DNA from: an uncultured archaeon
Lineage (GTDB): Archaea > Hadarchaeota > Hadarchaeia > Hadarchaeales > WYZ-LMO6
DNA length: 64,000 nucleotides
Reading direction: 5' to 3'
NCBI GenBank assembly: GCA_938074535.1
Contig: CALJER010000008.1
Coordinates: forward strand, 44,954-108,953
Part shown: piece after piece, positions 7,932-62,404 of the stretch
Layout: every line of letters starts with the position of its first letter
Position numbering within the stretch: the first letter of the stretch is position 1
Program-made: the position numbers and the translations under genes
The notes under the pieces: generated by a model
What the model was told of the DNA's origin: nothing
The model's input: the letters and a program-made list of their open reading frames with translations, nothing else
Database searches by the model: none

Positions 7932-7962
7932 TTTATACATCGAAACCGATATCGAAAGTGAT
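7932..7962 (+). promoter_or_regulatory. TATA box plus putative PadR operator (two tandem 12-mers)
   Basis: TTTATA at 7932, then ATCGAAACCGAT (7939-7950) and ATCGAAAGTGAT (7951-7962) directly before the padR ATG. Confidence 0.65.
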
Positions 7963-31421: not shown

Positions 31422-31475
31422 TCTCCCTCCCTTTTCTTGGAAGGTTTTTAACTTTGGGGAGGAGAAAAGGGGAGA

Positions 31476-33008
<1,533 letters not shown>

Positions 33009-33070
33009 CGCCCTCCGGCTCTTACCGGACCCCGGCGACCACGCCTGAAAGAGGGGAACCCCGCAAGCCT

Positions 33071-33577
33071 TCAGCGGAGGGGCTCCACACCCTCCAAATC
33101 GCTCAATTCCCCCCTAGTCTCCTTCGCCCAGACCGCCCTCACCCTCATCCCGATGTGCACTTCTTTCGGATCCGCACCTATCAACAGAGTGCCCAAGTTG
33201 GAATCGGCGCCGTCGAATTTGACGAAAACGGGAATAATAACCTCATCCTCCTGGATGAGGCCCTGCTCCACGGGATCCATCCCCAGCACCTTGATCTTCC
33301 CCCTTTTGATGGGCGGGCTTATGATGAAGCAGGTGACGGTACCTACGTCGGAAACCACCACCCTACCCTCCATCTTCCTGTGGCACCTCCCGCACAGGTT
33401 CCTGGGAGGCACTATCACCTTCCCGCATCCGAAGCACAGAGAGCCCACCAGCTTCCTCTGTTTTAAACCCTCCACGAATTCTTCGAGGAGTCTGTTGGCC
33501 TTCCAGGTGTAGGCCCCTATGTTCCACTCCCCCTCCACGCCCAGGGTTTCCGGTCTTTCCTCTTTGAGGTATGGCAT
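33071..33577 (-). CDS. DUF35 Zn-ribbon/OB-fold protein (ChsH2 C-terminal-like)
   Basis: CFGC...PPRNLCGRC, GTV, IGMRVRAVW. Confidence 0.9.
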   Translation of the reverse strand: MPYLKEERPETLGVEGEWNIGAYTWKANRLLEEFVEGLKQRKLVGSLCFGCGKVIVPPRNLCGRCHRKMEGRVVVSDVGTVTCFIISPPIKRGKIKVLGMDPVEQGLIQEDEVIIPVFVKFDGADSNLGTLLIGADPKEVHIGMRVRAVWAKETRGELSDLEGVEPLR

Positions 33578-33581
33578 CCCC

Positions 33582-34823
33582 TCACCTCGGAGAGTCACCC
33601 AGCACCGTCACCGTGGTGTAGTTCGTCACTCCCCCCCATCCGTGGGCCACGGCGTTCCTGACCTCCTTCGGGACCTGGTGCTCCTCGGCCTTTCCCATCA
33701 CCTGCAGAGCGGCTTCCAGGATCCTCTGTAAGGCGGAAGACCCTATGGCGTTCGTGGCGAGAACCCCCCCGGAGGGATCCGTCGGCATTCTGCCGTCGAT
33801 CTCCATTTCCCCCTCCTCGAGGGCCACCCAGGCCTTTCCCTCGTCAAAAAGCCCCAGCCTCTCGGCGAAGATGAGCTCCTGACTTGGGAAGGGCTGGTAA
33901 ATCTCAGCCACATCTATCTCCCTCTTCGGATCCGTTATTCCCGCCATCCTGTAGGCCTTCATCGCGGAAACCCTGCACCCCATCTGCTCGGAGGCGTCAA
34001 GGATGCCCACTCCCCCGTAGCTCTCGCTCATGAGCTGGTTTTCCTCGTCGGAGTAGGACGCAAGCCCCTTAACCCAGGCTTTGTCCTCTTTCTTCTTTGC
34101 GATATCCTCGGCCGCCACCACAATGGCAGAAGCGCCATCACTCGCGGGGCAGATGTGTCCGAACCTGAAGGGATACGCCACCATCTCGGTCTTTGCTATG
34201 TCCTCCGGGGTGCACCCTGGCCACTGAAGGTGTGCGTACTTGTTCTTCGCGGCGTTTCTCCTGCTCTTTGCAGCCACCATGTCGAAGTGCTCGATTCTAC
34301 ACCCGGATCTGTGCATGTAGAACATCGCCTGGTAGACGGCGACCCCCGCAGCGGCCCCCACGACGGTGGTGGCCACCAGACTCTTGAGGTTCATCCCGTA
34401 GTTGAAGGCATGGAAGAAATTGGCAAGAGCCACGTGCAGGAGACCGGTGGTTGCCCCGGGCTCTTTGCTGTCGGAATGCTTCTCCCAGGCCACGGCCAGG
34501 ACTTTGTCGTACATCCCCGAGGCCACCGCATAGATGGCCCCCTGCCCCACCGATCCCCCTGTGGTTCCACCCGTGGCTATTCTCATAACGGGCTTTCCCG
34601 GGGCGCCTATCCAATCCCCAATCCACTGGTCTGGCTGGGCGACGCCGCCGAACCCCTGCATGTTCCCCACCACGATGGCGTCAATCTCCTCTGGGGTTAC
34701 CTGGGCATCCTCCATGGCCCTCCAGGCTGCCTCTTCAATCATTTCAGGCAGGCTGACATCCCTTCTCTTGCTCGAATGCTTGGTCTGTCCGCATCCTATT
34801 ATGGCGACATTCCTGAACATCAT
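33582..34823 (-). CDS. Thiolase-fold (SCP-x/Ltp3-like) protein lacking catalytic Cys and His
   Basis: VAIIGCGQT, ATGGTTGGS at the Cys site, CPASDGA, DVAEIY, PSGGVLATNAIGSS at the His site. Confidence 0.88.
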   Translation of the reverse strand: MMFRNVAIIGCGQTKHSSKRRDVSLPEMIEEAAWRAMEDAQVTPEEIDAIVVGNMQGFGGVAQPDQWIGDWIGAPGKPVMRIATGGTTGGSVGQGAIYAVASGMYDKVLAVAWEKHSDSKEPGATTGLLHVALANFFHAFNYGMNLKSLVATTVVGAAAGVAVYQAMFYMHRSGCRIEHFDMVAAKSRRNAAKNKYAHLQWPGCTPEDIAKTEMVAYPFRFGHICPASDGASAIVVAAEDIAKKKEDKAWVKGLASYSDEENQLMSESYGGVGILDASEQMGCRVSAMKAYRMAGITDPKREIDVAEIYQPFPSQELIFAERLGLFDEGKAWVALEEGEMEIDGRMPTDPSGGVLATNAIGSSALQRILEAALQVMGKAEEHQVPKEVRNAVAHGWGGVTNYTTVTVLGDSPR

Positions 34824-35965
34824 CCCTCACCCCCAAGAATGAAAACCCAGTTCTTCTGGGCACACATCCCGAACTGGCCGTGAGCCAGGGCCCTTCGCAC
34901 ACCCGGAATCTGGTACTCACCCGCCTCGCCCCTTATTTGCTTGGCGGCCTCCACCATCCTCACCAGGCCCGTCGCGCAAACCGGATCGGCCGCGAGAGCC
35001 CCACCGCTGGGGTTAACGGGGATTTCACCGCCCTTCTCCGTTGCCCCCCTCTCCAAGAGGACCTTGCCCTTGCCCCTCCTGCAGAGGCCCAGGGCCTCGT
35101 ATATCATCAGCTCCTCGTGGGCAAATTTTTCCGAAACTTCGAAGACGTCAAGCTCCGCGTAGGGATCCCTTATCCCCGCCATCTCATAGGCATCCTTTGC
35201 CGCCTTACGCAGGGAATCAAGCTCGAGGAGGTTCCTGTCACGGAGGTAGAAGTCCTGGCAGACGCCTACCCCCTCTATCCAGACGGGAGTGTCGGTGATC
35301 TCCTTTGCCTTTTCTTCCGAGGCCAGAACCAGGGCACAGGCGCCGTCGCTGATGGGGGACATCATCAACTCCCTTATGGGATGGTAATAAAGTTTGGAGC
35401 CGAGCACCTCCTCCACAGTCAGGTCCGGCATCCTCCTCTGGGCAAAGGGGTTCTTCGCGGCATTCGAGAGATTCTTGACGGAAACCATCGCGATTTCCTC
35501 TTCGGAGACTCCGTAGGAGGACATGTACATCCTAGCTTGGATAGCAGCGGCTGAAACATCGTTGAGAACTCCTATCTGCCTGTCAAAGAGGGGATCCAAA
35601 GTGTAGAAGGATACTTGGTGTGGGTTGAAGGTCGACCCCTGAGTGTGGGCCTCCACCAGAGCTACGTCATGTACACCGGAGAGAATCCTCATGAAAGCGT
35701 ACCAAGCCGCGGAGGTACCATCTTCCTCTGTTTTCGATTCGTCCTTCAGGTAGGCCCCCACCGCCATGCTGAGAAAAACGCTTGAAATGGTCCTGCCGTC
35801 CAGAAAGTCCGTGGAGGCCGTGACCACGGTATCCACCTCCCCGCGCGTGATTCCCGCGTGCGAGAGGGCCTCTTTGACAACCTCAAAAACCATGTCCTCC
35901 CTGGTCTTTTGCATATCGAACTGATGTTGGGTCTGAGCGTAGCCCACTATGGCGACTCTCCTCAA
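34820..35965 (-). CDS. Thiolase-fold (Ltp4-like) protein lacking catalytic Cys and His
   Basis: VAIVGYAQT, DFLDGRTIS, ESKTEEDG, PISDGA, NPSGGALAADP, ALAHG..G.CAQKN. Confidence 0.88.
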   Translation of the reverse strand: MRRVAIVGYAQTQHQFDMQKTREDMVFEVVKEALSHAGITRGEVDTVVTASTDFLDGRTISSVFLSMAVGAYLKDESKTEEDGTSAAWYAFMRILSGVHDVALVEAHTQGSTFNPHQVSFYTLDPLFDRQIGVLNDVSAAAIQARMYMSSYGVSEEEIAMVSVKNLSNAAKNPFAQRRMPDLTVEEVLGSKLYYHPIRELMMSPISDGACALVLASEEKAKEITDTPVWIEGVGVCQDFYLRDRNLLELDSLRKAAKDAYEMAGIRDPYAELDVFEVSEKFAHEELMIYEALGLCRRGKGKVLLERGATEKGGEIPVNPSGGALAADPVCATGLVRMVEAAKQIRGEAGEYQIPGVRRALAHGQFGMCAQKNWVFILGGEG

Positions 35966-35969
35966 AGGC

Positions 35970-36446
35970 TCACCTCGAGGGTTTGAAGTATTCTATGTCC
36001 GCCAGCTCGCCTCTGGTTGCCTCTCTCCATTTCGGCTCCACTTCCATTCCCTCCCTCACCCCCTCGGGGTCTATCTCTCCAATCGGCATGAAGATCGTGG
36101 AATCGGCTCCTTCCAGCTTTATGGCCCCTATCACCCTTGGTTTTTCCAGGTCCACAAAATTCCCCTCCCCATCCAGCCCAACATAGGCCGTGGTGTAACC
36201 GACCAGAACCCCCCTTCCGGAAAGCTCTACCAAGTTTTTCTCCCCAAGCTTGGTCAAGCATTTTCCACACCTCGACCTGGGCGGCACGTAGGTGTACCCA
36301 CAGCTGGGGCACTTCGCCCCCAGAAGTTTCTTTTCGGCGAGTGACTTTATGAATCTCTCCATCAGAAAGCCCGTGGACCACTTGAACCGTGCAACGAAAG
36401 GCAGACCCTTTACTCGAACTATCCCTTCCCTCTCCAAATGCAACAA
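35970..36446 (-). CDS. DUF35 Zn-ribbon/OB-fold protein
   Basis: CPSC...PPRSRCGKC, GMEVEPKW, DIEYFKP. Confidence 0.9.
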   Translation of the reverse strand: MLHLEREGIVRVKGLPFVARFKWSTGFLMERFIKSLAEKKLLGAKCPSCGYTYVPPRSRCGKCLTKLGEKNLVELSGRGVLVGYTTAYVGLDGEGNFVDLEKPRVIGAIKLEGADSTIFMPIGEIDPEGVREGMEVEPKWREATRGELADIEYFKPSR

Positions 36447-36534
36447 AAAAAGTCGCCTAACCCCTTTAATAAGCCTTTCGGAAGCCGGCGGTCCAAGAGC
36501 TATTTAAGCCCCAACACGGAGAGCTGTTTGGGGA

Positions 36535-38544
36535 ATGGTCTCAGATTCTTTCTCCAGGTACAGACAAAAGTACTCAGACGGCAACAGAAGAAACAACACT
36601 TGGGGCGCCAGACTTGAGATGCTCGCCCACGTGATCCCGGACAGGAGCGCCTTCATCCAAGGAGAGAGGGAAGTGACTTGGGGGCACTTCAACGAGCGAG
36701 TTAACATGTTGGCAAACGCGTTTTTGGACCTCGGGATAAAAAAGGAAGAGAGGGTGGCCATAGTGGGCTTCAACTGCATTGAGTGGATGGAAACTTACTT
36801 CGCCGCTTCCAAGATAGGGGCCGTGCCGGTTAATGTGAACCCCAGGTTCGTTCCGGAGGAGGTCAGGTACATCCTCGAGAACTCGGACTCGGCGGCGGTG
36901 GTTCTGGAAGGCGAATTCCTCGAAACCGTAGAAAAGGCCTGCCGGGGTCTCTCCTCGGTGAGGCACTGCATCGTTTGGGAAGGGAGTCCCCCAGAGGGGA
37001 TGCTGAGCTATGAAGAACTTCTAAAAAACCGCCCCCCCACCGAACCCGAGCTTGGGTGGGAGGTGACCAACGAAGATTTCTGCTTTCTCTTTTACACGGG
37101 AGGAACGACCGGATATCCTAAGGGAACCGTGTGGGATTATGAAAGCAGGGTGAGGGGCTTGGATATGCTGCTTTATCACGCCATGACGCCCCTTCTGGAA
37201 AATCTGGCCAAGATGCCGGAAGGTTCATACGTTGGAACCATAAACACCCTTATCCCGCCCGAAGCAGCTGAATTCTTGCTGCCCACTTTTCAAACACCTC
37301 CCGAGTTCGAACCATGGCTGGAGCTAATCAAAACTCTGTACCCTCCCGGGTTTGAGCCCGAGGCTGAAAAGCTCACGCGATCCCTCGTGGAACTTCTCCG
37401 GTCAGTACCGGAGCCGGTAAGGGAAAAAATGATGCGGCTGATGAACACGCCGGCAGAAGAACGCGGCACCACGCAGGAAATCTTCCGCGATCCAGCCGTC
37501 GTACACTTTTTGAAGGAAACCTTCAGAGTGCTTCTCGGCACACCGCTCGCTTACCTGCTCAACGGCTCGAGGGTAAGAATTCTGATTGCCGCACCTTTGT
37601 TCCACGGTGCAGCCTATGAAGCCAATTTTGCGTACATCGGCACTTCCGGTGCCACAAGCGTTTACCTCACCTCCCATCGCTTTAACCCGAGAGAACTTTG
37701 GGAAACTGCGGAGAGGAGAAAAGTTAATTATATCCTCATAGTGGGGGACGCCTTTGCCATTCCCATGGCCGAGGAGCTGGAAAGAAGGAGATACGATCTC
37801 GGCTCGCTAGCGGGCATCATCTCATCCGGAGTCACCTGGTCCCCCAAAATCAAGAAAAAGCTGCTCGCACACATGCCCAGAGGCCTGGCGCTGGACGAAC
37901 TGGGGACTACGGAGTTCAGCGGTGCCCACTCCCACATCTCCACTCCTGCGGATGAAGAGATACCTGACCTCAGAATAAAAATCTCTTCGAACGGGGCCTA
38001 TCCCTGCCGGGTCGTCGATCCGGAAACGTGCGCAGACACCAAGCCTGGAGAGAGGGGGGAACTCATTTACGGAGGCTATATGGCCCTGGGATACTGGAAG
38101 GATCCGGAAAGAACCGCCAAATATTTCAGGTGGATAGACGGCAGACGCTGGTTCTTCACCGGGGATGAAGGAATTGTCGATGAGGACGGATACTTTCATT
38201 TCATAGGGAGGGGTGCTCTCGTGATCAACACCGGCGGAGAAAAAGTCTATCCTGAAGAAGTTGAAGAAACCATCAAAACACATCCCAAGGTCAGGGATGC
38301 TATTGTGACGGGGGTTCCGGATGAAAAGTGGGGTGAGGCTGTCACGGCCCTCGTGGAGCTGAAGGTTGGAGAAGAGGCAAAAGCGGAAGAAATAGTGGAG
38401 TTCTGCAGGGGAAGGCTGGCGGGATACAAAAAACCAAGGCATGTGATCTTCGTGGAGAAAATTCCCAGATCCGCCAGCGGAAAAATAGAGAGGGGGGAGA
38501 TAAAGAAAATGGCGGAAAAAATACTTAAATCTGGGAAGTCCTAA
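36535..38544 (+). CDS. Acyl-CoA synthetase (FadD19-like) with a large internal insertion
   Basis: YTGGTTGYPKG, PLFHG, GYWKDPE, FTGD, INTGGEKVYPEEVE, AGYKKPR, SGK. Confidence 0.92.
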   Translation: MVSDSFSRYRQKYSDGNRRNNTWGARLEMLAHVIPDRSAFIQGEREVTWGHFNERVNMLANAFLDLGIKKEERVAIVGFNCIEWMETYFAASKIGAVPVNVNPRFVPEEVRYILENSDSAAVVLEGEFLETVEKACRGLSSVRHCIVWEGSPPEGMLSYEELLKNRPPTEPELGWEVTNEDFCFLFYTGGTTGYPKGTVWDYESRVRGLDMLLYHAMTPLLENLAKMPEGSYVGTINTLIPPEAAEFLLPTFQTPPEFEPWLELIKTLYPPGFEPEAEKLTRSLVELLRSVPEPVREKMMRLMNTPAEERGTTQEIFRDPAVVHFLKETFRVLLGTPLAYLLNGSRVRILIAAPLFHGAAYEANFAYIGTSGATSVYLTSHRFNPRELWETAERRKVNYILIVGDAFAIPMAEELERRRYDLGSLAGIISSGVTWSPKIKKKLLAHMPRGLALDELGTTEFSGAHSHISTPADEEIPDLRIKISSNGAYPCRVVDPETCADTKPGERGELIYGGYMALGYWKDPERTAKYFRWIDGRRWFFTGDEGIVDEDGYFHFIGRGALVINTGGEKVYPEEVEETIKTHPKVRDAIVTGVPDEKWGEAVTALVELKVGEEAKAEEIVEFCRGRLAGYKKPRHVIFVEKIPRSASGKIERGEIKKMAEKILKSGKS

Positions 38545-38551
38545 ATACTGC

Positions 38552-39775
38552 GTGAACTTTGAACTCACGGAAGAGCAATCGATATTCAGAAAAACCCTTC
38601 GGGAGTTTCTGGACAAAGAAATTTCCCCCATCGCGGACAAAAGGGACAGAAAGGGGCCCCTCACAAAGGAAGAGGTAATAGGATTTTACAAAAAGTTCAA
38701 GGAGATAGGACTGGGCTTCGACCCGGCGACGGCGAGAGTTTGGCTGAAGGACCCAATGTTCTTTGGGATTGCCGCGGAAGAGATAAGTCGCGTCTGGGCC
38801 AGCCTGTTCGCGGTTTGGGCGTACCAGATCTTTGCCTCCCTTGCTCCCCTAGCTTCTGAGGAAAGCGCGGAAAGGTTGGCTTCTAAACTGGAGAGGGCAG
38901 AGCTCGTCGGCTGCATGGCCGTGACCGAGCCAGGAGCCGGCTCCGACACCTCCAAACTCCAGACCACTGCGACCCTGGAAGGAGATCATTATGTCATCCA
39001 GGGAAGAAAGTGCTGGATAACCAACGCTCCCATAGCCGACGTGGCTCTGGTCGCGGCAACCGAAAAGGATACTGGAATGCAGAACTTTTTCTTCATCGAT
39101 CGGGAAGTTTCCCCCTTCGAAACGACCGAATTACATAAAATAGGTTGGAGAGCCGCGCCCACGGGCGAGATGTTTTTTGATAACTGCCGGGTACCCAAGG
39201 AGAACGCTTTAACGGAGATGCTCTCCAAAGCCTTCACGGAGAGGGAGGAGATGAGGCCCCCCCTCTTCGACCCAGAATCCGGGATAATGAAGTTGGCCAC
39301 GAAAATTAAACCCCTGAGCGCCATCTTTTGCTTCATGCGGACGGGGATGGCGCTGCAGGCGACAGGGATTTCGCAGGCGGCTCTGGACGCCTCGATGAAA
39401 TACGCAAAGGAGAGAACTCAGTTCGGCAAACCTATCGGGAAGTTCCAGCTCGTTCAGGAGCTACTTTATGAAATGACCGCCATAACGGAGTCCTCACGCC
39501 TTCTCGCATACCGGGCTTTGGATGTAGCGTGGAGGGGAGACCCCGAGGCGAGAAAGTGGTCTTCTTTGGCCAAATGTTACGCCTGTGAGGGCTGCATCAA
39601 AGTGACTTACAATGCGATACAGCTCCACGGCGGGATAGGTCTCTCGGAGGAACTTCCGCTGGAGAGATACTTCCGGGATGCCAGGATAATGACCATCGGT
39701 GACGGCACCACCGAAATTCAAAAAATGATCGTGGGGCGCGAACTCCTGGGCAAGGGATTCTCGGCCTACGCCTAG
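38552..39775 (+). CDS. Acyl-CoA dehydrogenase
   Basis: TEPGAGSD, KCWITN, RTQFGKPIGKFQLVQ, QLHGG.G, IGDGTTEIQ. Confidence 0.93.
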   Translation: MNFELTEEQSIFRKTLREFLDKEISPIADKRDRKGPLTKEEVIGFYKKFKEIGLGFDPATARVWLKDPMFFGIAAEEISRVWASLFAVWAYQIFASLAPLASEESAERLASKLERAELVGCMAVTEPGAGSDTSKLQTTATLEGDHYVIQGRKCWITNAPIADVALVAATEKDTGMQNFFFIDREVSPFETTELHKIGWRAAPTGEMFFDNCRVPKENALTEMLSKAFTEREEMRPPLFDPESGIMKLATKIKPLSAIFCFMRTGMALQATGISQAALDASMKYAKERTQFGKPIGKFQLVQELLYEMTAITESSRLLAYRALDVAWRGDPEARKWSSLAKCYACEGCIKVTYNAIQLHGGIGLSEELPLERYFRDARIMTIGDGTTEIQKMIVGRELLGKGFSAYA

Positions 39776-39788
39776 AAGCATCACCCGT

Positions 39789-40709
39789 TCATTTGCTGGA
39801 CGGTCGGGGCAGGCTGAAAAAGAAAGTCCCTTCCCTTTTCACCACCTTTACCCTTCTTTCATTCTGCAGTTTAACGAGGTGGGCCAGGACAGAATTGTAT
39901 GTAAAATACGGAAATCCCCCCTCCGGATAGACCGAGTTGACGAGCTCCGAAAGGTCTTTCTCACCCTCCCCCAGAATTTCCAGCAACTTTTGTTCCGTCC
40001 TGAATTTTTGCTGAAGGATCCCGTCTATTCTCTTGTGGACCTCCCCCACCTCCCCACCATGTGAAAGAAAGGCCTTGTCTATCCTCAGCTTTTTTAGACG
40101 CTGGAGCGATTCCAAGAATTCCTCCAGGCTGCCCTGTAGGCACCCTACGAAGGGCGTCCCCCTGACCGTGATCATGTCCCCGGCGAATATGGTGCGGCTC
40201 TCCCCTTCGTAAAGACAAATGTGCCCCGGTGCATGACCGGGCGTGTGAAGAACTTTTAGGGAGAGGTCAGCCGCTCCAATGGAGTCTCCTTCCCTCAATC
40301 TCATGTCGACCTTTGCCGTCTTCACTTTCTCGTAAATGGAAGCTCGCATTCTGGCATGATCCGCGATTATGCCAGGCATCTCGCTCAGCACTTCCTCTGG
40401 TGGGAGCTGTTTTTTCATGTCCTCTATCAAAGGCGCGGCTACTTCATGCGCCGCTATCTTAACCCCGGCTCTCTCCTTTATGGAGGCGTTCCCACCGAAA
40501 TGGTCGATATGCTCATGGGTGTTCACGATCATGGAGACGTCGCTCAAATCGAACCCTATTTCCTCCAATTGAGAGGAGAGTTCTCCCACCGATTCCTCAT
40601 ATCCGCTGTCTATCAAAACCGGCGTTTCGCTCTCTACTAAGAAGGCATTTACCCTCTGCAGACCCGGGAAGCTTGGCTCGAGCGATATCGTGTGTACGCG
40701 CAGCCCCAT
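39789..40709 (-). CDS. Metallo-beta-lactamase-fold hydrolase with C-terminal wHTH-like region
   Basis: THEHIDHFG, TPGHAPGH, AGD, SHG. Confidence 0.9.
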   Translation of the reverse strand: MGLRVHTISLEPSFPGLQRVNAFLVESETPVLIDSGYEESVGELSSQLEEIGFDLSDVSMIVNTHEHIDHFGGNASIKERAGVKIAAHEVAAPLIEDMKKQLPPEEVLSEMPGIIADHARMRASIYEKVKTAKVDMRLREGDSIGAADLSLKVLHTPGHAPGHICLYEGESRTIFAGDMITVRGTPFVGCLQGSLEEFLESLQRLKKLRIDKAFLSHGGEVGEVHKRIDGILQQKFRTEQKLLEILGEGEKDLSELVNSVYPEGGFPYFTYNSVLAHLVKLQNERRVKVVKREGTFFFSLPRPSSK

Positions 40710-40801
40710 CTCGGACTCACCACTTTTCTTCTCACCGCTACTTAAATTTGCGGACAGGATCGGGAAGAAAAGCTTTTTATACTGCGGGGCCCGGGAAAAA
40801 T

Positions 40802-41878: not shown

Positions 41879-41998
41879 ACGGGGCAGGATACTCGGCTAC
41901 CCACGTCTGGTCCATCCGGCTCGACGCCGATTCGAGAGCGGATGCTGGCAGGATGGTTCCGTAGAAATGCTTATACGCTTCCCCTGCAGGATTTTTTG

Positions 41999-42922
41999 AT
42001 GGAGAAACTGATCATCACCGCGGCAGTGACCGGGGGGGAGTTTGTTTCCAAGCTGCAAACCGAATATGTTCCCTGCACTGTGGACGAAATAGTTGAGGAA
42101 GTTATCAGGTGCAGGAAGGCGGGCGCCTCGGTGGTTCACCTGCATGCCAAAGATCCCGAAACCGGCAGACCCCATCCGGATCCCAATTCAGTTTTTCCGG
42201 AATACATCAGAAGAATAAGGGAAAGCGAGGCTTCGGACATCATAATCAATGTGACTACGGGTGGGGGAAGGCCCCTTCCTAGAGAGATGGCCGAGCTGTT
42301 CGGTATCGAGCAAAAGTACACCCCAGAGGAGTATGAGAGGATGGTGGACAAGTGGATGGAGGAGCGAATGAAGTTCGGTCAAGAGATGTCCTCGCTCAAC
42401 ATGGGATCGATAAACATCTGGGAGGACATGGGGCTGGAGCCCCTGAGGGACTTCGTGTTCAGCAACCCCATCTCCAGAATCGAGCGATGGGCAAAATACA
42501 TGTACGAGAACAACGTAAAACCAGAACTCGAGATTTACGACACGGGCATGATAAACACGGCCAAAGCCTTGGTGAGGGAGGGAAAACTGAAGGAGCCTTT
42601 ACATGTCCAGTTCGTCCTCGCCGGGGGGATGAGCTGTATGTCGCCAACGCCGAAAACTCTGTTGTACTGTGTTGAAAGCATTCCCCAGAACTGGACCTGG
42701 TCGGTTTGTGCGACCGGAAGATATGAGATGGAGATGGGAACACTGGCAGTTATCCTCGGCGGCCACGTGAGGGTCGGGATGGAGGACAACATATACCTGG
42801 AGAAAGGAGTCCTCGCAAAAAGCAACGCTGAACTCGTTGCCAAGATCGCTCGGATAGCCAAGGAACTTGGAAGAGAAACAGCCACTCCCGACGAGGCAAG
42901 GAAAATTCTGGGCTTGAGATAA
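41999..42922 (+). CDS. Beta-keto acid cleavage enzyme (BKACE / DUF849, Kce family)
   Basis: KLIITAAVTG, GASVVHLH, KPELEIYD, GHVRVGMEDN, ATPDEARKIL. Confidence 0.93.
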   Translation: MEKLIITAAVTGGEFVSKLQTEYVPCTVDEIVEEVIRCRKAGASVVHLHAKDPETGRPHPDPNSVFPEYIRRIRESEASDIIINVTTGGGRPLPREMAELFGIEQKYTPEEYERMVDKWMEERMKFGQEMSSLNMGSINIWEDMGLEPLRDFVFSNPISRIERWAKYMYENNVKPELEIYDTGMINTAKALVREGKLKEPLHVQFVLAGGMSCMSPTPKTLLYCVESIPQNWTWSVCATGRYEMEMGTLAVILGGHVRVGMEDNIYLEKGVLAKSNAELVAKIARIAKELGRETATPDEARKILGLR

Positions 42923-43015
42923 CTGCCCGGAAAGCAGGCGCGGATCCCGAAGGACCGTTCAGCGATGGCTCCCCAGCCCCGGGCGGTGCGGACCTGGAAA
43001 GAGGTTCAACCTGCT

Positions 43016-44194
43016 CTATGTCCTGTAACTCTTCGGCATGCCCAGAACATGCTCCGCGATGAAGTTCAGAGCCATCTGCTGGGTAACCGGGGCCAGGCGA
43101 AGCAGGTTGATCTCCCTCCACCACCTCTCCAGATCCATTTCCTTCGCGTATCCGTAACCCCCAAAAATCTGCATGGCCCAATAAACGGCCTTGATTCCCG
43201 CCTCAACGGCGACCGCCTTCGCCATATTTGCCGCGGCACCCACTTCCAACCTATGAGCCTCCCTGTCAAAAAGCCAAGAGGCCTTGAAATTCATCAGCCT
43301 CGCACACTCCAGGGTGGCGAAGGCCTCGGCGAGGGGGAACTGGAGTCCCTGATAGCTTCCGATCGGATCCTCAAACACCCTCCTCTGCTTTGAGTATTCC
43401 ACGGCCTTGTTGATCGCAAGCCTGGCCGTACCTATCGCCGCGGCGGTGAAGCTCATTCTCTCGGCGTTTAGGGTATCGAGCAGGATGTACCATCCACCGT
43501 GGAGGGGGGGAATCAGGGCATCCTCCGGGAGCCTGAGGTTGTCTATCTGTACCTCGCAGGTCTCCGAGTAGTTTATCCCATGCTTGGGTATCGGGCTTAT
43601 CCTCACCGCCTCGTTCGGAAGGTCTGCCAGGAAGAGACTTATTCCATGGGCCTTCTCCCTCTCCCTCGGCGCGGTTCTGGCCACTATGAGCATACCTCCC
43701 GCCCGGTCGGCGCCGCTGATGAAAATCTTGCTGCCGTTGATCACCCACTCTCCGCCCCCCTTGAGCGCCCTCGTCTTGGTGGCCAGGGTGTTGGTTCCCG
43801 CCTCAGGTTCGGTCAGAGCCATGCAAAACTCCATTTCACCCCTCGCCAGCCTCGGAAGATACTTCCTCTTCTGCCCCTCCGTCCCGTGCCTCACTATCGT
43901 CAGGGCCCCGAAGACCTCCGTGAGGATCAGGTACCACGCCCCGCCCATGCCGCAGCCATTCGCCGCCAGTTCTTCCATCACTATGAGGAGCTCCGTCATC
44001 CCCAGGCCCAGTCCGCCGTACTCCTCTGGGACCACTATTCCCATGAAGCCTCTCTCGCCTATCTCCCTCAGGAATTCCTCCCCCACTTCCCCCCTCTCCT
44101 CCTTCCTCCTCCAGTATTCGGGGGGGAAACGCCTGGCTACCTCCCTGGCGGCATCTGCGAGCATCTTCTGCTGCTCGGTAAGCTCGAAATTCAC
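43016..44194 (-). CDS. Acyl-CoA dehydrogenase
   Basis: PEEYGGLG, TEPEAG, NGSKIFIS, LNAER, QIFGGYGY, LLRLAPV. Confidence 0.93.
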   Translation of the reverse strand: MNFELTEQQKMLADAAREVARRFPPEYWRRKEERGEVGEEFLREIGERGFMGIVVPEEYGGLGLGMTELLIVMEELAANGCGMGGAWYLILTEVFGALTIVRHGTEGQKRKYLPRLARGEMEFCMALTEPEAGTNTLATKTRALKGGGEWVINGSKIFISGADRAGGMLIVARTAPREREKAHGISLFLADLPNEAVRISPIPKHGINYSETCEVQIDNLRLPEDALIPPLHGGWYILLDTLNAERMSFTAAAIGTARLAINKAVEYSKQRRVFEDPIGSYQGLQFPLAEAFATLECARLMNFKASWLFDREAHRLEVGAAANMAKAVAVEAGIKAVYWAMQIFGGYGYAKEMDLERWWREINLLRLAPVTQQMALNFIAEHVLGMPKSYRT

Positions 44195-44195
44195 C

Positions 44196-44933
44196 TCATT
44201 CCCCCGGGGCTTCCCACCTCTTCATCACCATCTCCCTCGTTATCCCGAATCTCTCCTGCAAGAACTCGTAGGTTTTTTCCAGGTCCCTTCTGAGATCCTC
44301 CATAGCCTTGGCATCGGCGTGAAGACAAGACCACTTGGGTGGCTCCTGCCCGGGGACGGGGACGGCGTAGATGTCCATGAGCTCCCCCTTCCTCTCCTCC
44401 CTGAACTTTATGCGGACCCTCTGCCCCACCCACACGTGGGTGGGGGAAGTCAGGATCTGGATGGGCAGAGCTGTGTGGGCACCATCGATCTGAACGTATC
44501 CCAGCACGAAGGGAAGATGCTCCAGAAAGGCCTCGGCCGAGAAGAGCATGATGGAGAAGGTGTGGACCTTCCCGCTGGGGGGAAGCTCGACCCACTCGGT
44601 CGGCTGCGCCTTGCAACTAGGGTTCCAGCAGTGGGCCCGGGCAGGACAGTAAACCGTCCCGCAGCGGGGGCATCTGGTGCCGTAAAGCTTCCCCTCTATC
44701 AATCCCCTGAAGAACTTTGAGACCTTGCCTAGGCTGTGGTGATAGAGGACACCGTGGGGGCGGTAAACGACCATGAACTCCTCCTCCCTTTCCTCCCCCA
44801 CCTTGGTGTTTCCTGCGGGACCCCTTATTATCCGGTATCCCCTGGGCCTCCAGTTCCCCCTTCTCGCGTACTCCTCCCACTCCCTCAGCACTTCCAAGAC
44901 CCTGTCCTCCACCACCTTTTCCCTTTCCCCCAC
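44196..44933 (-). CDS. DUF35 Zn-ribbon/OB-fold protein with N- and C-terminal extensions
   Basis: CPRC...CPARAHCWNPSC, GKVHTFS, VGQRV. Confidence 0.88.
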   Translation of the reverse strand: MGEREKVVEDRVLEVLREWEEYARRGNWRPRGYRIIRGPAGNTKVGEEREEEFMVVYRPHGVLYHHSLGKVSKFFRGLIEGKLYGTRCPRCGTVYCPARAHCWNPSCKAQPTEWVELPPSGKVHTFSIMLFSAEAFLEHLPFVLGYVQIDGAHTALPIQILTSPTHVWVGQRVRIKFREERKGELMDIYAVPVPGQEPPKWSCLHADAKAMEDLRRDLEKTYEFLQERFGITREMVMKRWEAPGE

Positions 44934-44937
44934 TCCC

Positions 44938-46218
44938 TCACCTCGAAAAGACGATAACTCCTCCCTGGCAGCCCGTGCCGCCGTGACCAGTGAGGAGGGC
45001 CTTCTCAGCTCCGGAAACCTGCAGCTTCGGATCCCCGAATTTTTCCGGTATTCTCTCCGCTAGCTCCCAGTAGAGGAAGAGGGTCTGGAGCAGGCTGGTG
45101 GCCCCCACCGGATGGGCAAAGGCCGTGAGGCCACCGCTGAGCTGGCAGGGCAGCTCCCCCCCTCTCATCACCGTTCCCTCCCTAACCATGGTTTTTCCCT
45201 CCCCTCTGGGACACCACAGAAGGTCCTCATACAAACAGAGCTCAACCCCGTCATAGGGCGCGAAGAGTTCGGCGAGGTCGAGTTCCCGCACGGGGTGGGT
45301 GATACCGGCCCTCCTGTACGCCTGCCTGGCGGCCTCCCTCGCAAAACCGAAATTGGCCATCTCCGGGTAGGGCGTCAAAGGCCTCTCCACGAAGCTGGGG
45401 TACCTCTCCTCGTCCTCCGGGTATGCACCCTTGTAGGGCCAGTCCACCAGCCTGTCCCCCGGCCTCATGGAATCCGTTCCGAGTCCTACCCCTTCTATCC
45501 ACATCGGCGCATCCGAATACTTCCTGGCCACCTTTTCCGAAGCCAGGAGGAGGACCGCGGCCCCCTCGCTTATCAGGGCACAGTTCCATCTCCGGTAAGG
45601 CCAGGCGACGATCCTGTCCTTGAAGTAATCATCCAGCGTCACATAGCTCGTACCGTGCTCGGATCTCCACTGAGAGTACGGATTGTGGACGGCGTTGTTC
45701 CTGTTCCTGACCGCCAACCTTCCCAGATCTTCCACGGTTTCGCCGTAGAGCTGCATGTGCCTCACCTCGAGCGCTGCATAATACCCGTTGTAGTACCCGC
45801 CCACGGTGAAATCCCAGTCGGTGTCCGAAGCCGCGGCGATGAACTCGTTGGTGGTAGCGGTGTCCACCTCGGACATCCACTCCCAACCTACTACCAGAAT
45901 GAGGTCGTACTCTCCGGATTTTATCAGGAAATACGCATTTATCAGGGCATCGAGGGGAGTGCTCCCCCCCGCCTCCACCCTGTACCCGGGCTTCCTGTGA
46001 TGCCCTATATAGTCCTGGACTATCCAGCTCATGCAGAGCTGCTGATTCAGGTGGTCGCTGAAGTAGGAACACTGAACGAATTCTATGTCCCTGGGATCCA
46101 GCTCTGGAACCTCCTCGAGCAACATCCTGTAGGCCTCCGCCACGCCCTCTTCAGCGACCTCGTAGCGAACCCTATCGGGCCTGAAGAGGCCCCCTCCCAC
46201 CACCGCCACCTTGGTCAT
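44938..46218 (-). CDS. Thiolase-fold (SCP-x type) protein lacking the N-terminal catalytic Cys
   Basis: VEAGGST at the Cys site, NAVHNPY, ISEGAA, SGGL..AHPVGAT (His retained). Confidence 0.88.
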   Translation of the reverse strand: MTKVAVVGGGLFRPDRVRYEVAEEGVAEAYRMLLEEVPELDPRDIEFVQCSYFSDHLNQQLCMSWIVQDYIGHHRKPGYRVEAGGSTPLDALINAYFLIKSGEYDLILVVGWEWMSEVDTATTNEFIAAASDTDWDFTVGGYYNGYYAALEVRHMQLYGETVEDLGRLAVRNRNNAVHNPYSQWRSEHGTSYVTLDDYFKDRIVAWPYRRWNCALISEGAAVLLLASEKVARKYSDAPMWIEGVGLGTDSMRPGDRLVDWPYKGAYPEDEERYPSFVERPLTPYPEMANFGFAREAARQAYRRAGITHPVRELDLAELFAPYDGVELCLYEDLLWCPRGEGKTMVREGTVMRGGELPCQLSGGLTAFAHPVGATSLLQTLFLYWELAERIPEKFGDPKLQVSGAEKALLTGHGGTGCQGGVIVFSR

Positions 46219-46444
46219 CTCGCCCTTTTTCCTTCGGAGTGTATTAAGCTTTTTGACTCATGCATTAAAACTGGACTTAAAACACCTTGAAGGTGAAATA
46301 AAAAGCAGAGGAACTAGCCCTGCATGAGCTAGCCGGATTTCGACCTCACGCCCTTGCCTCCACGCTTGGTCAAAGTGGTAGAGAACAAAGCATGGCGAAA
46401 CAGCTAATAAATACGAGAGCTCAACACCCAAATGGTGGAATACG

Positions 46445-48409
46445 GTGAGAAAGCCTCTTTGGACACCGTCGCAAGAACGCGTAGAAAGGGCTAACATAAC
46501 CTCCTTTATAGAATTTGTAGAAAGAAAACACGGTTTAAAAACAGCCTCCTACCATGAACTGTATAAATGGTCTATAGAAAACATCCCCAGTTTCTGGGAA
46601 TGTGTGTGGGAATTCGCTCAAATAAAAGCTTCCCACCGATATGAAGTGATAGTCGACGATCTAAGCAAGTTTCCGGGAGCAAGATGGTTTGTCGGGGCCC
46701 GCCTCAACTTTGCAGAAAACCTCCTGAAACACAGAGACGACCATCTTGCCTTCATATTCAGGAATGAGAGCCAAAAAACAAAAAGGCTAACCTACAGGCA
46801 GCTCTACGATTCGGTGGCCCGCTTGGCGAAACGGTTGCGCGAAATCGGAATTGGTCCAGGAGACCGCATAGCCGCTTACATGCCCAACATCCCCGAAACT
46901 CCAATTGCCATGCTTGCGGCGGCAAGTGTTGGCGCCATATGGTCTTCATGCGGAACGGAATTGGGTCCCAGCGCCGTCGTAGAGCGCCTGGGCCAAATAA
47001 ACCCCAAAGTACTGTTTGCTGTCGATGGCTATCCGTACAGGGGAAGAACCTTTGATGTTTTGACCAATATTGAAAAGATTGTGAAAGGAGTACCTTCCCT
47101 TGAAAAAGTTGTCGTGGTCCCGTACACAGCAGAAAAGCCCAACCTTGCGAATGTTCCCAAATCGATAAACTATGAGGAGTTTACATCCGCCGAAGAAAAA
47201 AGTGGGATCAAATTCGAACAGCTGCCGGCTGAACACCCACTCTACATAATGTTTTCCTCAGGGACTACCGGCAAGCCAAAATGCATGGTTCAGAGCGCCG
47301 CGGGAGTCCTCATCAACCACCTCAAAGAGCTAGTCCTCCACACGGACTTAAAACGTGAGGACAGGATTTTCTATATAACCTCTCCGAGCTGGATGATGTG
47401 GAACTGGCTGATGAGCTCCTTGGCCGTTGGCGCCACTATCATATTGTATGATGGCAACCCAAATTATCCGGACTGGGGCGCCATGTGGAAGCTTGTCCAG
47501 GAGGAGAAAATAACAATTTTCGGATGCAGCGCCAGCTACATAAACCATCTAAGGAGTGTGGGCGCCAAACCGGGAAAAGTTTATGACCTATCCTCCCTGC
47601 GTGAGATCTCCCAAACTGGGTCGCCACTCTCAGCTGAAGGCTTTGAGTACGCCTACAGAGAAATCAAGGAGGACCTGCACTTCAACTCCATTTCAGGAGG
47701 AACGGACATAAACGGCTGCTTCGCCGCCGGAACACCCATCCAACCAGTGTACGCTGGAGAACTGCAAGGTCCGGCGTTGGGGATGAAAGTTAAAGCTTAT
47801 GATGAAAAAGGCAACGAGGTGGTCGATCGCGAAGGAGAGCTTGTCTGCGAAGCCCCTGCACCGTCCATGCCGCTTTATTTCTGGAACGATCCAGACGGCA
47901 AAAAATACAAGGAAGCCTACTTTAGCTTCTACCCAAACGTTTGGCGGCACGGTGACTTGATTCTGATCCACAGCGACACGGGGGGAATAACCTTCCTCGG
48001 ACGCTCAGACTTTACGCTGAAACCCTCAGGCGTGCGCATAGGGCCGGCAGAAATCTACAGCGTGGTAGAAAAAATTGAGGGAATTGCCGACTGCATCGCT
48101 GTTGGACAGGACTGGAAAGGTGACCAACGCATAATTCTATTCGTAAAGCTTGCTCCACAGTTTAAGTTAACCGAGGAGTTGAAAAACAAGATTAAAAAGG
48201 TCCTAAGGGAGGAAGCTTCTCCAAGACACGTTCCGGCGTTGATCATCGAAGTGCCGGACATTCCATATACTTTCAACATGAAAAAAGTCGAAAGTGCAGT
48301 TTCAAACATAATAAACGGTAGGGCAGTTACGAATAGGGATGCCTTAATCAATCCGGAGTCGCTTGACTTCTTTGAAAAAATTCTCCCGGAGCTTCAAAAA
48401 GAACAGTGA
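46445..48409 (+). CDS. Acetoacetate-CoA ligase (acetoacetyl-CoA synthetase)
   Basis: LNFAENLL, FSSGTTGKPKC, WMMWNWL, SISGGTD, VWRHGD, GVRIG.AEIY, SPRHVP, KKVE. Confidence 0.94.
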   Translation: MRKPLWTPSQERVERANITSFIEFVERKHGLKTASYHELYKWSIENIPSFWECVWEFAQIKASHRYEVIVDDLSKFPGARWFVGARLNFAENLLKHRDDHLAFIFRNESQKTKRLTYRQLYDSVARLAKRLREIGIGPGDRIAAYMPNIPETPIAMLAAASVGAIWSSCGTELGPSAVVERLGQINPKVLFAVDGYPYRGRTFDVLTNIEKIVKGVPSLEKVVVVPYTAEKPNLANVPKSINYEEFTSAEEKSGIKFEQLPAEHPLYIMFSSGTTGKPKCMVQSAAGVLINHLKELVLHTDLKREDRIFYITSPSWMMWNWLMSSLAVGATIILYDGNPNYPDWGAMWKLVQEEKITIFGCSASYINHLRSVGAKPGKVYDLSSLREISQTGSPLSAEGFEYAYREIKEDLHFNSISGGTDINGCFAAGTPIQPVYAGELQGPALGMKVKAYDEKGNEVVDREGELVCEAPAPSMPLYFWNDPDGKKYKEAYFSFYPNVWRHGDLILIHSDTGGITFLGRSDFTLKPSGVRIGPAEIYSVVEKIEGIADCIAVGQDWKGDQRIILFVKLAPQFKLTEELKNKIKKVLREEASPRHVPALIIEVPDIPYTFNMKKVESAVSNIINGRAVTNRDALINPESLDFFEKILPELQKEQ

Positions 48410-48767
48410 GCTGAAATAGCTTCCCTTAAATCCGTCTGGCTTGAAAAACCCCGGCAATATCCCTTAGGGAACTAATCCCGCGCCCGCCCTCATGCCAAGT
48501 ATGGGCTTCCAAATCCTCAAATCTCAGATCCTGCACTTTCAAAATCCTCTTGATGAAGCGCGAGATACCCGCGAAAAGCTGGACTTTGACGGAGGGGGGC
48601 CTACCCAAAAGGCACTCACCGCAAAGGATGGTCAAGCGACCGGGCACACGAATTCGGGAGAAATTTCGGGCTTTGGGGGCCCCTCCGGGGGATGAAGGAA
48701 GCCCGACCCCAAGAAAACCTCAGAACCCCGGACGGGCTGGACAGCAAGGGGTAGTGGGGGGAAGCGA

Positions 48768-50225: not shown

Positions 50226-50263
50226 CCTTCCACCTTTTATACAGGGGAGGGGGGAGTTTAATC

Positions 50264-50773: not shown

Positions 50774-50774
50774 C

Positions 50775-51647: not shown

Positions 51648-51675
51648 GACTTCCAAGGGGGATGGGCTCTCAAGG

Positions 51676-51683
51676 CTTTAAAG
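51676..51683. promoter_or_regulatory. Palindromic TATA element shared by divergent DGGGPS and tes
   Basis: CTTTAAAG. The TTTAAA core lies 28 nt from ATG 51711 (+) and 29 nt from ATG 51647 (-). Confidence 0.6.
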
Positions 51684-51710
51684 TCTCTCCCGCTTAGATA
51701 TGCGACAAAG

Positions 51711-53303: not shown

Positions 53304-53361
53304 CTTCTGAGGGGGGAGGGCAACGCTTCCCTTATAAGTCCACCGGAAAAGGTAGCTGAAG

Positions 53362-61293: not shown

Positions 61294-61368
61294 GAACCAC
61301 CGAGAGGGAACCTTTTACTTCCTTCGGAGGATACCCGGGTTTATTACCTGGAGCACCCAGGGAAGGGG

Positions 61369-62379: not shown

Positions 62380-62404
62380 GAACGCGGAGACCAGAGGCTC
62401 CAAC

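Follow-up and report, generated by a model that had tools for sequence, protein, structure and literature searches.

A gene island between purH and guaB

The DNA analyzed here is a stretch of 64,000 nucleotides, referred to as the window, from contig C8 (CALJER010000008.1) of an uncultured Hadarchaeon. The genome that holds it, G000, is a metagenome-assembled genome (MAG) of 1.2 Mb in 53 contigs, with a completeness of 93.6%; G001 to G004 denote its congeners, and L-numbers the related loci with which the window was compared. Between the core genes purH and guaB, an open reading frame (ORF) listing together with Pfam and NCBIfam scans delimits an island of 13 genes, at window positions 33071-48409. 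Its products include a cleavage enzyme for beta-keto acids (BKACE), an acetoacetate-CoA ligase (AACS), two acyl-CoA dehydrogenases (ACADs), and three proteins of the thiolase fold, two of which form a four-gene module with two DUF35 proteins. The remaining genes of the window are housekeeping genes, namely those for ribosomal proteins, EF-1alpha and RNA polymerase, and a purine-synthesis cluster. The island genes and their two flanks are:

31476..33008, plus strand: purH, left flank, core genome (AICARFT_IMPCHas 403.8 bits; 81-90% DNA identity to congeners)
33071..33598, minus strand: DUF35_a, zinc-ribbon/OB protein, last gene of the module (zf-ChsH2 34.4 bits; OB_ChsH2_C 21.7 bits, under the 27.1 cut-off; CxxC...CxxC in the translation)
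33582..34823, minus strand: Thl_a, SCP-x-type thiolase fold (Thiolase_C_1 115 bits; NF006180 (PRK08313) 471.9 bits, cut-off 514)
34820..35965, minus strand: Thl_b, paralogous thiolase fold, always beside Thl_a (Thiolase_C_1 114.6 bits)
35970..36446, minus strand: DUF35_b, second DUF35 paralog, first gene of the module (OB_ChsH2_C 41.7 bits, zf-ChsH2 35.6 bits)
36535..38544, plus strand: AMP-forming acyl-CoA ligase, or AMP-ligase (AMP-binding in two stretches and AMP-binding_C; NF005863 468 bits, cut-off 543)
38552..39775, plus strand: ACAD1, acyl-CoA dehydrogenase (all three ACAD domains: N-terminal, middle, C-terminal)
39789..40709, minus strand: metallo-beta-lactamase (MBL) fold hydrolase, a candidate thioesterase or lactonase (Lactamase_B 118.9 bits; all specific NCBIfam models under cut-off)
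40673..41878, plus strand: NMO/FabK-like FMN flavoprotein (NMO 168.8 bits, cut-off 28; match from residue 47)
41942..42922, plus strand: BKACE, class A (TGGE) (PF05853 302.9 bits, cut-off 24.8, profile positions 1-274)
43016..44194, minus strand: ACAD2, acyl-CoA dehydrogenase, placed third in the Thl_c cassette (three ACAD domains)
44196..44933, minus strand: DUF35_c (zf-ChsH2 34.2 bits, OB_ChsH2_C 34.6 bits; matches from residue 80)
44938..46218, minus strand: Thl_c, thiolase fold (Thiolase_C_1 78 bits)
46445..48409, plus strand: AACS (TIGR01217 838.4 bits, cut-off 520.9; NF002937 897.8 bits, cut-off 639)
48768..50225, minus strand: guaB, right flank, core genome (IMPDH 380.8 bits and CBS domains; 84-91% DNA identity to congeners)

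This inventory bears out the one in the original prediction, which had been made from the letters of the DNA and had named a ligase, two ACADs, an NMO/FabK-like protein, an MBL hydrolase, BKACE, AACS, thiolase folds, and DUF35 proteins. That prediction also spoke of three thiolase-fold/DUF35 pairs. The counts hold, and every thiolase-fold gene has a DUF35 partner, but the arrangement is one four-gene module plus one pair. The claim that the island has neither a crotonase nor a 3-hydroxyacyl-CoA dehydrogenase is confirmed by the Pfam scan, in which none of the island ORFs covered showed an ECH_1 or a 3HCDH domain; the island likewise contains no MaoC gene.

DUF35_b and DUF35_c exceed the cut-offs for both domains, and DUF35_a for the zinc ribbon only. 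DUF35_a and DUF35_b share only ~30% identity, and orthologs of DUF35_a (46-71% identity) adjoin Thl_a in related loci. DUF35_c has an N-terminal extension of ~75 residues ahead of its zinc ribbon, and is full-length in 28 of 29 Thl_c loci. In the AMP-ligase, residues 345-662 match positions 219-533 of the NF005863 profile; an insertion of ~135 residues (residues ~208-344), inside the N-terminal AMP-binding domain, splits both the Pfam and the NCBIfam match. Neither ACAD attains the cut-off of an NCBIfam equivalog, and a paralog of ACAD1 (53%) is found on contig C3 of G000. The NMO/FabK-like protein scores 203.3 bits on the FabK model TIGR03151, below the cut-off of 453.1, and qualifies only for the general NMO family; its true start is probably ~130 nt downstream of 40673. 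MBL genes are also found near BKACE in L026, L034, L011, and L013.

The three thiolase-fold proteins lack the thiolase nucleophile

Active-site residues were read from HMMER alignments to the solved thiolases 6esq, 7yvy, and 6hsj. The position of the nucleophilic Cys is occupied by Gly in Thl_a, by Thr in Thl_b, and by Gly in Thl_c, i.e., the canonical Cys is missing from all three, as had been predicted. The His of the GHP motif is replaced by Asn in Thl_a and by Asp in Thl_b; Thl_c retains this His, along with the Cys of the C-terminal GCQG motif. The equivalent of the HDCF motif is YQPF in Thl_a, SEKF in Thl_b, and FAPY in Thl_c. Its first position is Tyr in Thl_a, Ser or Thr in Thl_b, and Phe in Thl_c, and its third position is Pro in Thl_a (40/40) and Thl_c (25/25), and Lys or Arg in Thl_b.

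Such substitutions characterize the families and do not reflect decay. In Thl_a, neither Tyr309 nor the Gly or the Asn varies among 40 orthologs. The S/T-E-K/R-F-A-H motif of Thl_b has an invariant Glu and His (38/38), and the Asp is found in 37 of the 38 sequences; the Cys column is unaligned in this family alignment, and no Cys is present among the residues at 13 surrounding columns in the 38 sequences. In Thl_c, the Gly, the F-x-P-Y motif, the His, and the Cys of GCQG are each invariant in 25 of 25. All three proteins thus lack the thiolase nucleophile, and thiolase catalytic residues have been lost.

Thiolase folds of this kind have a precedent. Ltp2 and Sal, as described in excerpts of PMC12329534, are thiolase-fold retro-aldolases bound to DUF35 domains, whose catalytic base is the Tyr of a YDHF (Ltp2) or YDCY (Sal) motif; DUF35 partners are known for Ltp2-ChsH2, Sal-Shy, BbsAB, and PhlABC. 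The same excerpts state that Gly replaces the nucleophilic Cys in CtSal, and equate the Cys of this motif with the catalytic Cys of SCP-2 thiolases. If YD(H/C)(F/Y) is equated with HDCF, which is a step of our own, Tyr309 of Thl_a would occupy the position of the retro-aldolase base. Thl_a is thus a candidate for the catalytic subunit of a retro-aldolase, the putative activity being suggested by this one conserved Tyr and by analogy.

BKACE and the activation of acetoacetate

Alignment of the island BKACE with 2y7d, and a family alignment, show that it keeps the HxH, E-x-E-x-Y, and R...ED motifs, in the segments VVHLH, KPELEIYD, and GGHVRVGMED. The sites compared, in Kce numbering, were the Zn ligands His46, His48, and Glu230, along with Glu143, Tyr145, Arg226, and Asp231. 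The catalytic residues are intact. Excerpts of PMC12871164 describe Tyr145 as required for BKACE activity, and give the reaction as the conversion of a beta-keto acid and acetyl-CoA to an acyl-CoA and acetoacetate.

BKACE is the native gene of the locus. An ortholog with 87% identity lies beside purH in congeners G001 and G004; in G001 it directly adjoins purH, where the contig stops, and G004 has the arrangement purH-BKACE-1.8 kb-guaB. The gap between purH and guaB is ~1.8 kb in congeners G002 and G003. This spacer codes for both subunits, A and B, of a PF01144 CoA-transferase, amid purine genes (L144, G003:C1, 2487-4258; L146, G004:C184, 532-2312). The layout purH-(BKACE)-CoA-transferase-guaB thus indicates that the native unit consists of BKACE and an acetoacetate-activating enzyme, in line with the tie between the two that had been predicted; CoA-transferase pairs also accompany the module in related Dehalococcoidia loci. 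AACS, which passes the equivalog test for acetoacetate-CoA ligase (TIGR01217 and NF002937) and has the lowest GC content in the window (0.50), sits where the congeners carry the CoA-transferase pair, and G000 has no such pair at that site. The sole PF01144 pair of G000, on contig C26, is only 31-39% identical to that of the congeners; it is therefore a paralog, and not the congener CoA-transferase relocated. That is, AACS replaces the CoA-transferase pair of the congeners: in G000 a non-orthologous enzyme displaced it, and further cassettes were added on both sides.

These data also bear on the possibility that BKACE is an ordinary Kce of lysine fermentation, in which case the island would feed a butyrate/acetoacetate fermentation of lysine. 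Lys_ferment_KCE is indeed the best NCBIfam name for the protein, and the Glu at the position of Kce Glu14 is kept (TGGE); the BKACE and CoA-transferase pair of the congeners resembles the kce-atoDA arrangement, and the NetSyn text on BKACE mentions CoA-transferases among its neighbors. However, the score on that model (NF052387) is 275.7 bits against a cut-off of 382, with the match split in two by an insertion, and the best solved relative, 3LOT, is an uncharacterized protein and not Kce. Neither kdd-, kal-, nor kamDE-like genes are found in the island, and the lysine 2,3-aminomutase domain LAM_C (PF12544) is detected in 0 of 9 genomes, namely G000 and 8 relatives (75-95% complete), among them every one of the 5 family relatives with BKACE. 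Lysine fermentation was rejected on the grounds of the score and of LAM_C; as the original prediction had supposed, this BKACE is not a plain Kce, and we consider the contrary very improbable.

In four loci of the Dehalococcoidia type, including L110 (13399-14340), a gene of the PF04199 cyclase family lies beside BKACE. Nearby are GlcD/GlcF-like FAD/CCG proteins, along with a nitroreductase and an acetyl-CoA hydrolase/transferase. These neighbors may represent a ring-opening or hydroxy-acid branch that feeds the module and BKACE genes.

Recurrence of the cassettes in other genomes

A search with Thl_a returned 45 loci, in Dehalococcoidia, Desulfobacterota-like MAGs, and several archaeal phyla. 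The four-gene module DUF35-Thl-Thl-DUF35 is complete in 36 of them and partial in the other 9, 7 of which visibly hit a contig end. Its order in bacterial loci is Thl_b-Thl_a-DUF35_a-DUF35_b; the archaeal order, found in G000 and in Methanolliviera (L099, 74-81% identity), is DUF35_b-Thl_b-Thl_a-DUF35_a. Thl_c and DUF35_c are adjacent in 28 of 29 Thl_c loci, and an ortholog of ACAD2 (66-77%) directly follows DUF35_c in 5 of the 29.

The original prediction had called for a search for co-occurrence, and the families do prove to be syntenic elsewhere. BKACE is present in 16 of the 45 Thl_a loci. It adjoins the module in G017 and G025, and in Archaeoglobus sp. JdFR-41 (L025) a BKACE with 81% identity is succeeded by DUF35_b, Thl_b, Thl_a, DUF35_a, and an NMO ortholog (70%) that flanks the module, in that order. 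Among 301 sampled Dehalococcoidia genomes, 11 carry Thl_a and 89 carry BKACE. BKACE is found in 9 of these 11 and in 80 of the 290 others (Fisher p = 4e-4, for related genomes that are not independent), and in 7 of the 11 it lies within ~2.5 kb of Thl_a. Three Dehalococcoidia loci (L155, L158, and L159) bring together Thl_c-DUF35_c and BKACE with three ACADs and a four-gene module that is paralogous; the Thl_a-type module is also present in L158 and L159, and L155 has it on the same contig, immediately outside the stretch examined (L110). The cassettes are thus co-located in a conserved manner across bacterial and archaeal phyla, and this synteny supports the view that Cys-less thiolase folds and BKACE are coupled with the activation of acetoacetate.

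The BKACEs adjacent to the module fall into at least two sequence classes, with TGGE in archaea and TGSA or TGSV in Dehalococcoidia, and all of them keep HxH, E-x-E-x-Y, and R...ED. Close orthologs of BKACE in loci that lack the module adjoin genes for ECH, 3HCDH, MBL, CoA-transferase, or ligase.

Other acyl-CoA genes accompany the module. ACADs are found near it in clusters of 10 and 6 loci, CoA-transferase subunits in clusters of 5, 4, 3, and 3 loci, the AMP-ligase in 5 loci, a double hot-dog 4HBT protein in 4, NMO in 4 (the window, L025, L117, and L112), Aldedh in 3, and AOR in 2. MaoC genes, in pairs or singly, adjoin it in a 4-locus cluster and in L017 and L139; L140 likewise has MaoC.

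A second, paralogous DUF35-Thl-Thl-DUF35 module (33-47% identity) lies beside the first in several Dehalococcoidia loci (L103, L116, L155, L159, and L161). The four-gene design is thus a family with several members. G017 and G025 each have a second Thl_a-like gene, with 42-44% identity. In L017 (G017:C15, 14328-19227), from a Hadarchaeon that belongs to a different family, two MaoC genes come after the module, as do genes for a large subunit like that of methylmalonyl-CoA mutase, for a B12-binding subunit, for MeaB, and for a corrinoid adenosyltransferase, which form a B12-dependent acyl-CoA mutase set. Upstream of the module are ECH and 3HCDH, together with an ADP-forming acyl-CoA synthetase, an ACAD, and a ligase. 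This neighborhood hints at the rearrangement of a branched carbon skeleton.

Origin of the island

The island is absent from all 5 family relatives, none of which has a Thl_a ortholog (0/5). Of the 41 Hadarchaeales genomes searched, 3 have one, namely G000, G017, and G025. The GC content of the island is 0.50-0.60, against 0.62-0.65 in the flanks. At its borders no convincing direct or inverted repeats were found (the best are 16-34 nt at 62-94%), nor any tRNA, and no integrase or transposase domain was detected among the ORFs scanned with Pfam.

The cassettes have different nearest relatives. In a quick tree, Thl_a of G000 is placed among bacterial and Methanolliviera sequences, outside a clade (support 98) that unites the other Hadarchaeota copies with those of Archaeoglobi, Thermoproteota, and Freyarchaeota. 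The Thl_a/Thl_b module shares 75-82% identity with copies from Dehalococcoidia, and Thl_c shares 88-89% with those of Bathyarchaeota, Methanomethylicia, and other uncultured archaea; ACAD1 and NMO have paralogs of 53-54% elsewhere in G000. The island was thus assembled piecemeal. The original prediction had treated it as one unit; the co-location of the cassettes stands, and the single unit does not, in that the cassettes are separately conserved and differ in their nearest relatives.

Could the stretch instead be an artifact, i.e., Dehalococcoidia-like DNA joined to an archaeal contig by assembly or binning? The low GC content, the absence of the island from the five family relatives, and the identity of the module to Dehalococcoidia copies would all fit such a chimera. 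However, Logan contigs from the one run listed as containing the stretch, a DNA run (no RNA run was among the holders), tile positions 31000-50500 at an even depth of ~7-9, and single contigs span purH into the module (32838-34050) and AACS into guaB (47983-50500). The run is probably the source sample, and thus provides a second assembly rather than independent data; this assembly tiles the stretch evenly and bridges both borders. In addition, the native BKACE, at the same site as its 87% identical orthologs in the congeners, lies in the middle of the island, and the genes of the module follow the archaeal order, as in L099. We therefore regard the probability of a chimera as close to negligible.

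A proposed pathway and its alternatives

The locus is a lower-GC insertion in G000. Our interpretation, which we hold with about even confidence, is that a catabolic island was assembled horizontally here and grew around a native unit of BKACE and acetoacetate activation, and that the island works as follows. In step 1, the AMP-ligase would activate an organic acid, and in step 2 the ACADs would oxidize the acyl-CoA to an enoyl-CoA. The enoyl-CoA would be hydrated in step 3 by hot-dog or crotonase hydratases encoded elsewhere, for which G000 has 2 MaoC and 3 ECH genes. In step 4, the 3-hydroxyacyl-CoA would be cut without a thiol, by retro-aldol cleavage, to acetyl-CoA (or propionyl-CoA) and an aldehyde or ketone; the putative catalysts are a heteromeric DUF35_b-Thl_b-Thl_a-DUF35_a complex, with Tyr309 of Thl_a as the base, and Thl_c-DUF35_c. 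An aldehyde product could be oxidized by the 5 AORs of G000. In step 5, BKACE would convert a free beta-keto acid and acetyl-CoA to a shortened acyl-CoA and acetoacetate, which AACS would re-activate in step 6. The heteromer, the order of the steps, and a substrate that is branched or otherwise refractory to thiolase are what we infer from this gene set; Thl_b may be either catalytic or structural.

More broadly, and only tentatively, many strict anaerobes may share an undescribed, non-thiolytic shortening of carboxylic acids, by heteromeric Cys-less thiolase-fold/DUF35 retro-aldolases together with BKACE and acetoacetate recovery. Carriers found in this analysis are Dehalococcoidia, Desulfobacterota-like bacteria, Archaeoglobi, Hadarchaeota, Bathyarchaeia, Methanolliviera, and Asgard-related archaea. 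Here the retro-aldolases would act on 3-hydroxyacyl-CoAs that resist oxidation or thiolysis, e.g., those with beta-branched, isoprenoid-like, or ring-bearing chains, and BKACE would turn the resulting (or a derived) free beta-keto acid into the next acyl-CoA and acetoacetate. Acetyl-CoA would cycle between the retro-aldolase and BKACE, with acetoacetate regained through a CoA-transferase or AACS. A closed loop through intermediates of the 3-hydroxy-3-alkylglutaryl type would be chemically attractive, and finds no support here.

The main argument for a joint function is that the same families have been assembled repeatedly in different lineages. Several observations weigh against the pathway. 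The island has no hydratase, dehydrogenase, or regulator, and no hydratase or aldehyde-oxidizing gene was found in it by the Pfam scan. Its six transcription units alternate in direction and its cassettes have different nearest relatives, which leaves co-regulation as one pathway hypothetical. The motif of Thl_a does not include the second catalytic residue of known aldolases (it has Pro, not His or Cys), Thl_b and Thl_c do not have the motif Tyr, and Thl_a matches the thiolase 6esq (4e-36) better than it matches Ltp2 (6ok1, 3e-17). No BKACE is visible in 29 of the 45 Thl_a loci, many of which are short contigs. Nothing in the data accounts for the source of a free beta-keto acid, or links the product of the aldolase to the substrate of BKACE; the acetone-carboxylase-type subunit Hydantoinase_B was not found in G000 (93.6% complete). 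Finally, G000 has canonical beta-oxidation genes that could carry out ordinary thiolysis.

The latter lie elsewhere in G000, and comprise 3 ECH, 2 strong 3HCDH, 2 MaoC, and 3 further SCP-x-type thiolase genes; in total, the genome has ~8 ACAD paralogs, 6 SCP-x-type thiolase-fold genes, and 5 AOR genes. The organism is therefore not thiolase-independent, and this label of the original prediction fits the island only. Two candidate links were dropped. One is the supply of the beta-keto acid by carboxylation of a methyl ketone, given that Hydantoinase_B was not found in G000 and that no gene of this type was seen in the related loci annotated. The other is a link to alkane oxidation by alkyl-CoM reductase, given that MCR_alpha was not found in G000. 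In excerpts of PMC10811742, beta-oxidation is described as restricted to Ca. Cerberiarchaeaceae; G000, without Mcr/Acr, still encodes a sizeable set of acyl-CoA genes.

An alternative to a single pathway is a loose collection of accessory acyl-CoA genes, in which BKACE and AACS are self-contained, the canonical thiolases shorten the chains, and the Cys-less cassettes serve another process or are non-catalytic scaffolds or lipid-binding proteins. The mosaic origins of the genes agree with this alternative, with Thl_a outside the archaeal clade of the other Hadarchaeota copies, Thl_c 88-89% identical to copies from Bathyarchaeota and Methanomethylicia, NMO 70% identical to the Archaeoglobus copy, and BKACE native; so do the six alternating transcription units, the other thiolase, ECH, and 3HCDH genes of G000, and the finding that most of the close BKACE orthologs have no thiolase-fold gene nearby, L025 alone having the module among the 33 BKACE loci examined (L019-L051). 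The same families, however, recur together in distant phyla far above the background frequency of BKACE, and the strict conservation of unusual motifs in the three thiolase-fold families argues for active pockets, not decayed scaffolds. We judge a loose collection to be unlikely, while taking it seriously as a competitor of the retro-aldolase/BKACE pathway.

A second alternative is that the genes work in the biosynthetic direction, i.e., that acyl chains or beta-keto acids are made by the thiolase-fold/DUF35 proteins, the NMO/FabK-like protein, and the ACADs, on the model of the archaeal ketothiolase (KT)/DUF35 fatty-acid synthase or of the thiolase/HMG-CoA synthase/DUF35 complex, with BKACE running in reverse. 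According to excerpts of bioRxiv 10.1101/2024.07.05.601840, Claisen condensation in S. acidocaldarius is driven by KT/DUF35 complexes, and archaea commonly have more than one KT/DUF35 pair. A flavoprotein of the enoyl-reductase type occurs with the module in the four NMO loci listed above. Claisen condensation by thiolases, however, requires an acyl-enzyme Cys, which is missing in all three proteins; in addition, no HMG-CoA synthase, ketoreductase, or dehydratase was found in the island by the Pfam scan, and ACADs, ligase, AACS, CoA-transferases, and AOR are the usual marks of catabolism. Biosynthesis is thus improbable, and we retain retro-aldol cleavage coupled to BKACE as the preferred direction.

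Comparison with known systems

The closest analogy is with Ltp2-ChsH2 and Sal-Shy, retro-aldolases that act on steroid side chains. The SCP-x thiolase fold without nucleophilic Cys is common to them and to the island proteins, the Gly of CtSal being that of Thl_a and Thl_c, and their motif, if equated with HDCF, opens with a Tyr as in Thl_a; the DUF35 partner is obligatory (excerpts of PMC12329534). The same excerpts place Ltp2 and Sal after an ACAD and a MaoC hydratase, and MaoC adjoins the module in L017, L139, and L140. The differences are that Thl_a has YQPF as opposed to YDHF or YDCY, with no visible counterpart of the known proton donor (Tyr344 or Cys304). This donor, i.e., a His with a second Tyr or the motif Cys, is found in none of Thl_a, Thl_b, and Thl_c, and the island thiolase folds match Ltp2 (6ok1) with E-values of ~1e-15 to 1e-17, more weakly than they match true thiolases. 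Moreover, Ltp2 and Sal form a homodimer with a MaoC-fused DUF35, in contrast to the two different thiolase folds and two free-standing DUF35s of the module, whose hosts are strict anaerobes and archaea without steroid genes.

Ltp3 and Ltp4 of Rhodococcus and Mycobacterium resemble Thl_a and Thl_b in that their genes are two adjacent, paralogous thiolase-like genes. We take NF006180 and NF005924 to be the models for Ltp3 and Ltp4. Thl_b scores 205.7 bits on NF005924, a "lipid-transfer protein" model of 353 positions with a cut-off of 419, and 261.6 bits on NF006180, with a cut-off of 514. The scores of Thl_a and Thl_b are thus under the NCBIfam cut-offs, and the likeness rests on these scores and on the presumed assignment of the models. 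We know of no BKACE in the Ltp3/Ltp4 pathway. Excerpts of PMC6593523, citing Wilbrink 2012, report ltp3 and ltp4 as aldol-lyases for C24-branched sterol side chains.

The island also resembles routes in which BKACE or Kce acts with an acetoacetate CoA-transferase, i.e., those for lysine, carnitine, and other beta-keto acids, in the type of reaction, the catalytic residues, and the acetoacetate-activating neighbor; it differs from them in a BKACE below the Kce equivalog cut-off, in the absence of lysine-pathway genes, and in its surroundings of Cys-less thiolase folds, DUF35 proteins, and ACADs. In a limited literature search, no publication was found that deals with both BKACE and DUF35. The word "thiolase" does not occur in the NetSyn text, which treats the genomic contexts of BKACE, and according to the same text the BKACE set of Bastard 2014 includes only 3 archaeal genomes.

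In archaea, the thiolase/HMG-CoA synthase/DUF35 complex and the ketothiolase/DUF35 fatty-acid synthase likewise have an SCP-x-type thiolase gene beside a DUF35 gene and form DUF35-bridged assemblies; among solved structures, Thl_a matches 6esq best, and this is the thiolase from the former complex. Their thiolases, in contrast, are catalytically complete and perform Claisen condensation, whereas in the island the Cys is lost in three proteins and the His in two, and there is no HMG-CoA synthase or ketoreductase partner. The PhlABC acyltransferase and the BbsAB benzoylsuccinyl-CoA thiolase are also heteromeric assemblies of thiolase folds and DUF35, and PhlC and BbsB are among the solved structures matched by the island thiolase folds. 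PhlA and BbsB, however, keep a catalytic Cys (partly according to excerpts of PMC12329534), and their partner types and gene contexts differ from those of the island.

We regard the gene set as a variation on thiolase-fold/DUF35 aldolases and on BKACE with acetoacetate recycling, with a wide and undescribed distribution in anaerobes. The anaerobic breakdown of branched, isoprenoid, and cyclic acids in the subsurface is only partly understood, and reconstructions of beta-oxidation from MAGs routinely count thiolase-like genes as "acetyl-CoA acetyltransferase". A widespread group of such genes cannot encode thiolases, and travels with BKACE and acetoacetate-activating enzymes across domains; the four-gene module offers a concrete, clonable test object, along with its partner enzyme. 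In the present case, a Hadarchaeon that is probably outside the alkane-oxidizing family would have gained acyl-CoA catabolism by piecemeal transfer.

Other genes of the window

Outside the island, Pfam gave no match at E <= 1e-5 for five long ORFs on the minus strand, whose lengths are 359-681 residues (2266-4311, 6711-7940, 53332-54837, 55042-56121, and 61315-62631). To the right of guaB, an ORF of 968 residues (50397-53303, plus strand) has both a zinc ribbon of the HMPTM type and a radical SAM domain. Because UbiA and DUF359 ORFs on the opposite strand overlap it, its 5' part is probably non-coding.

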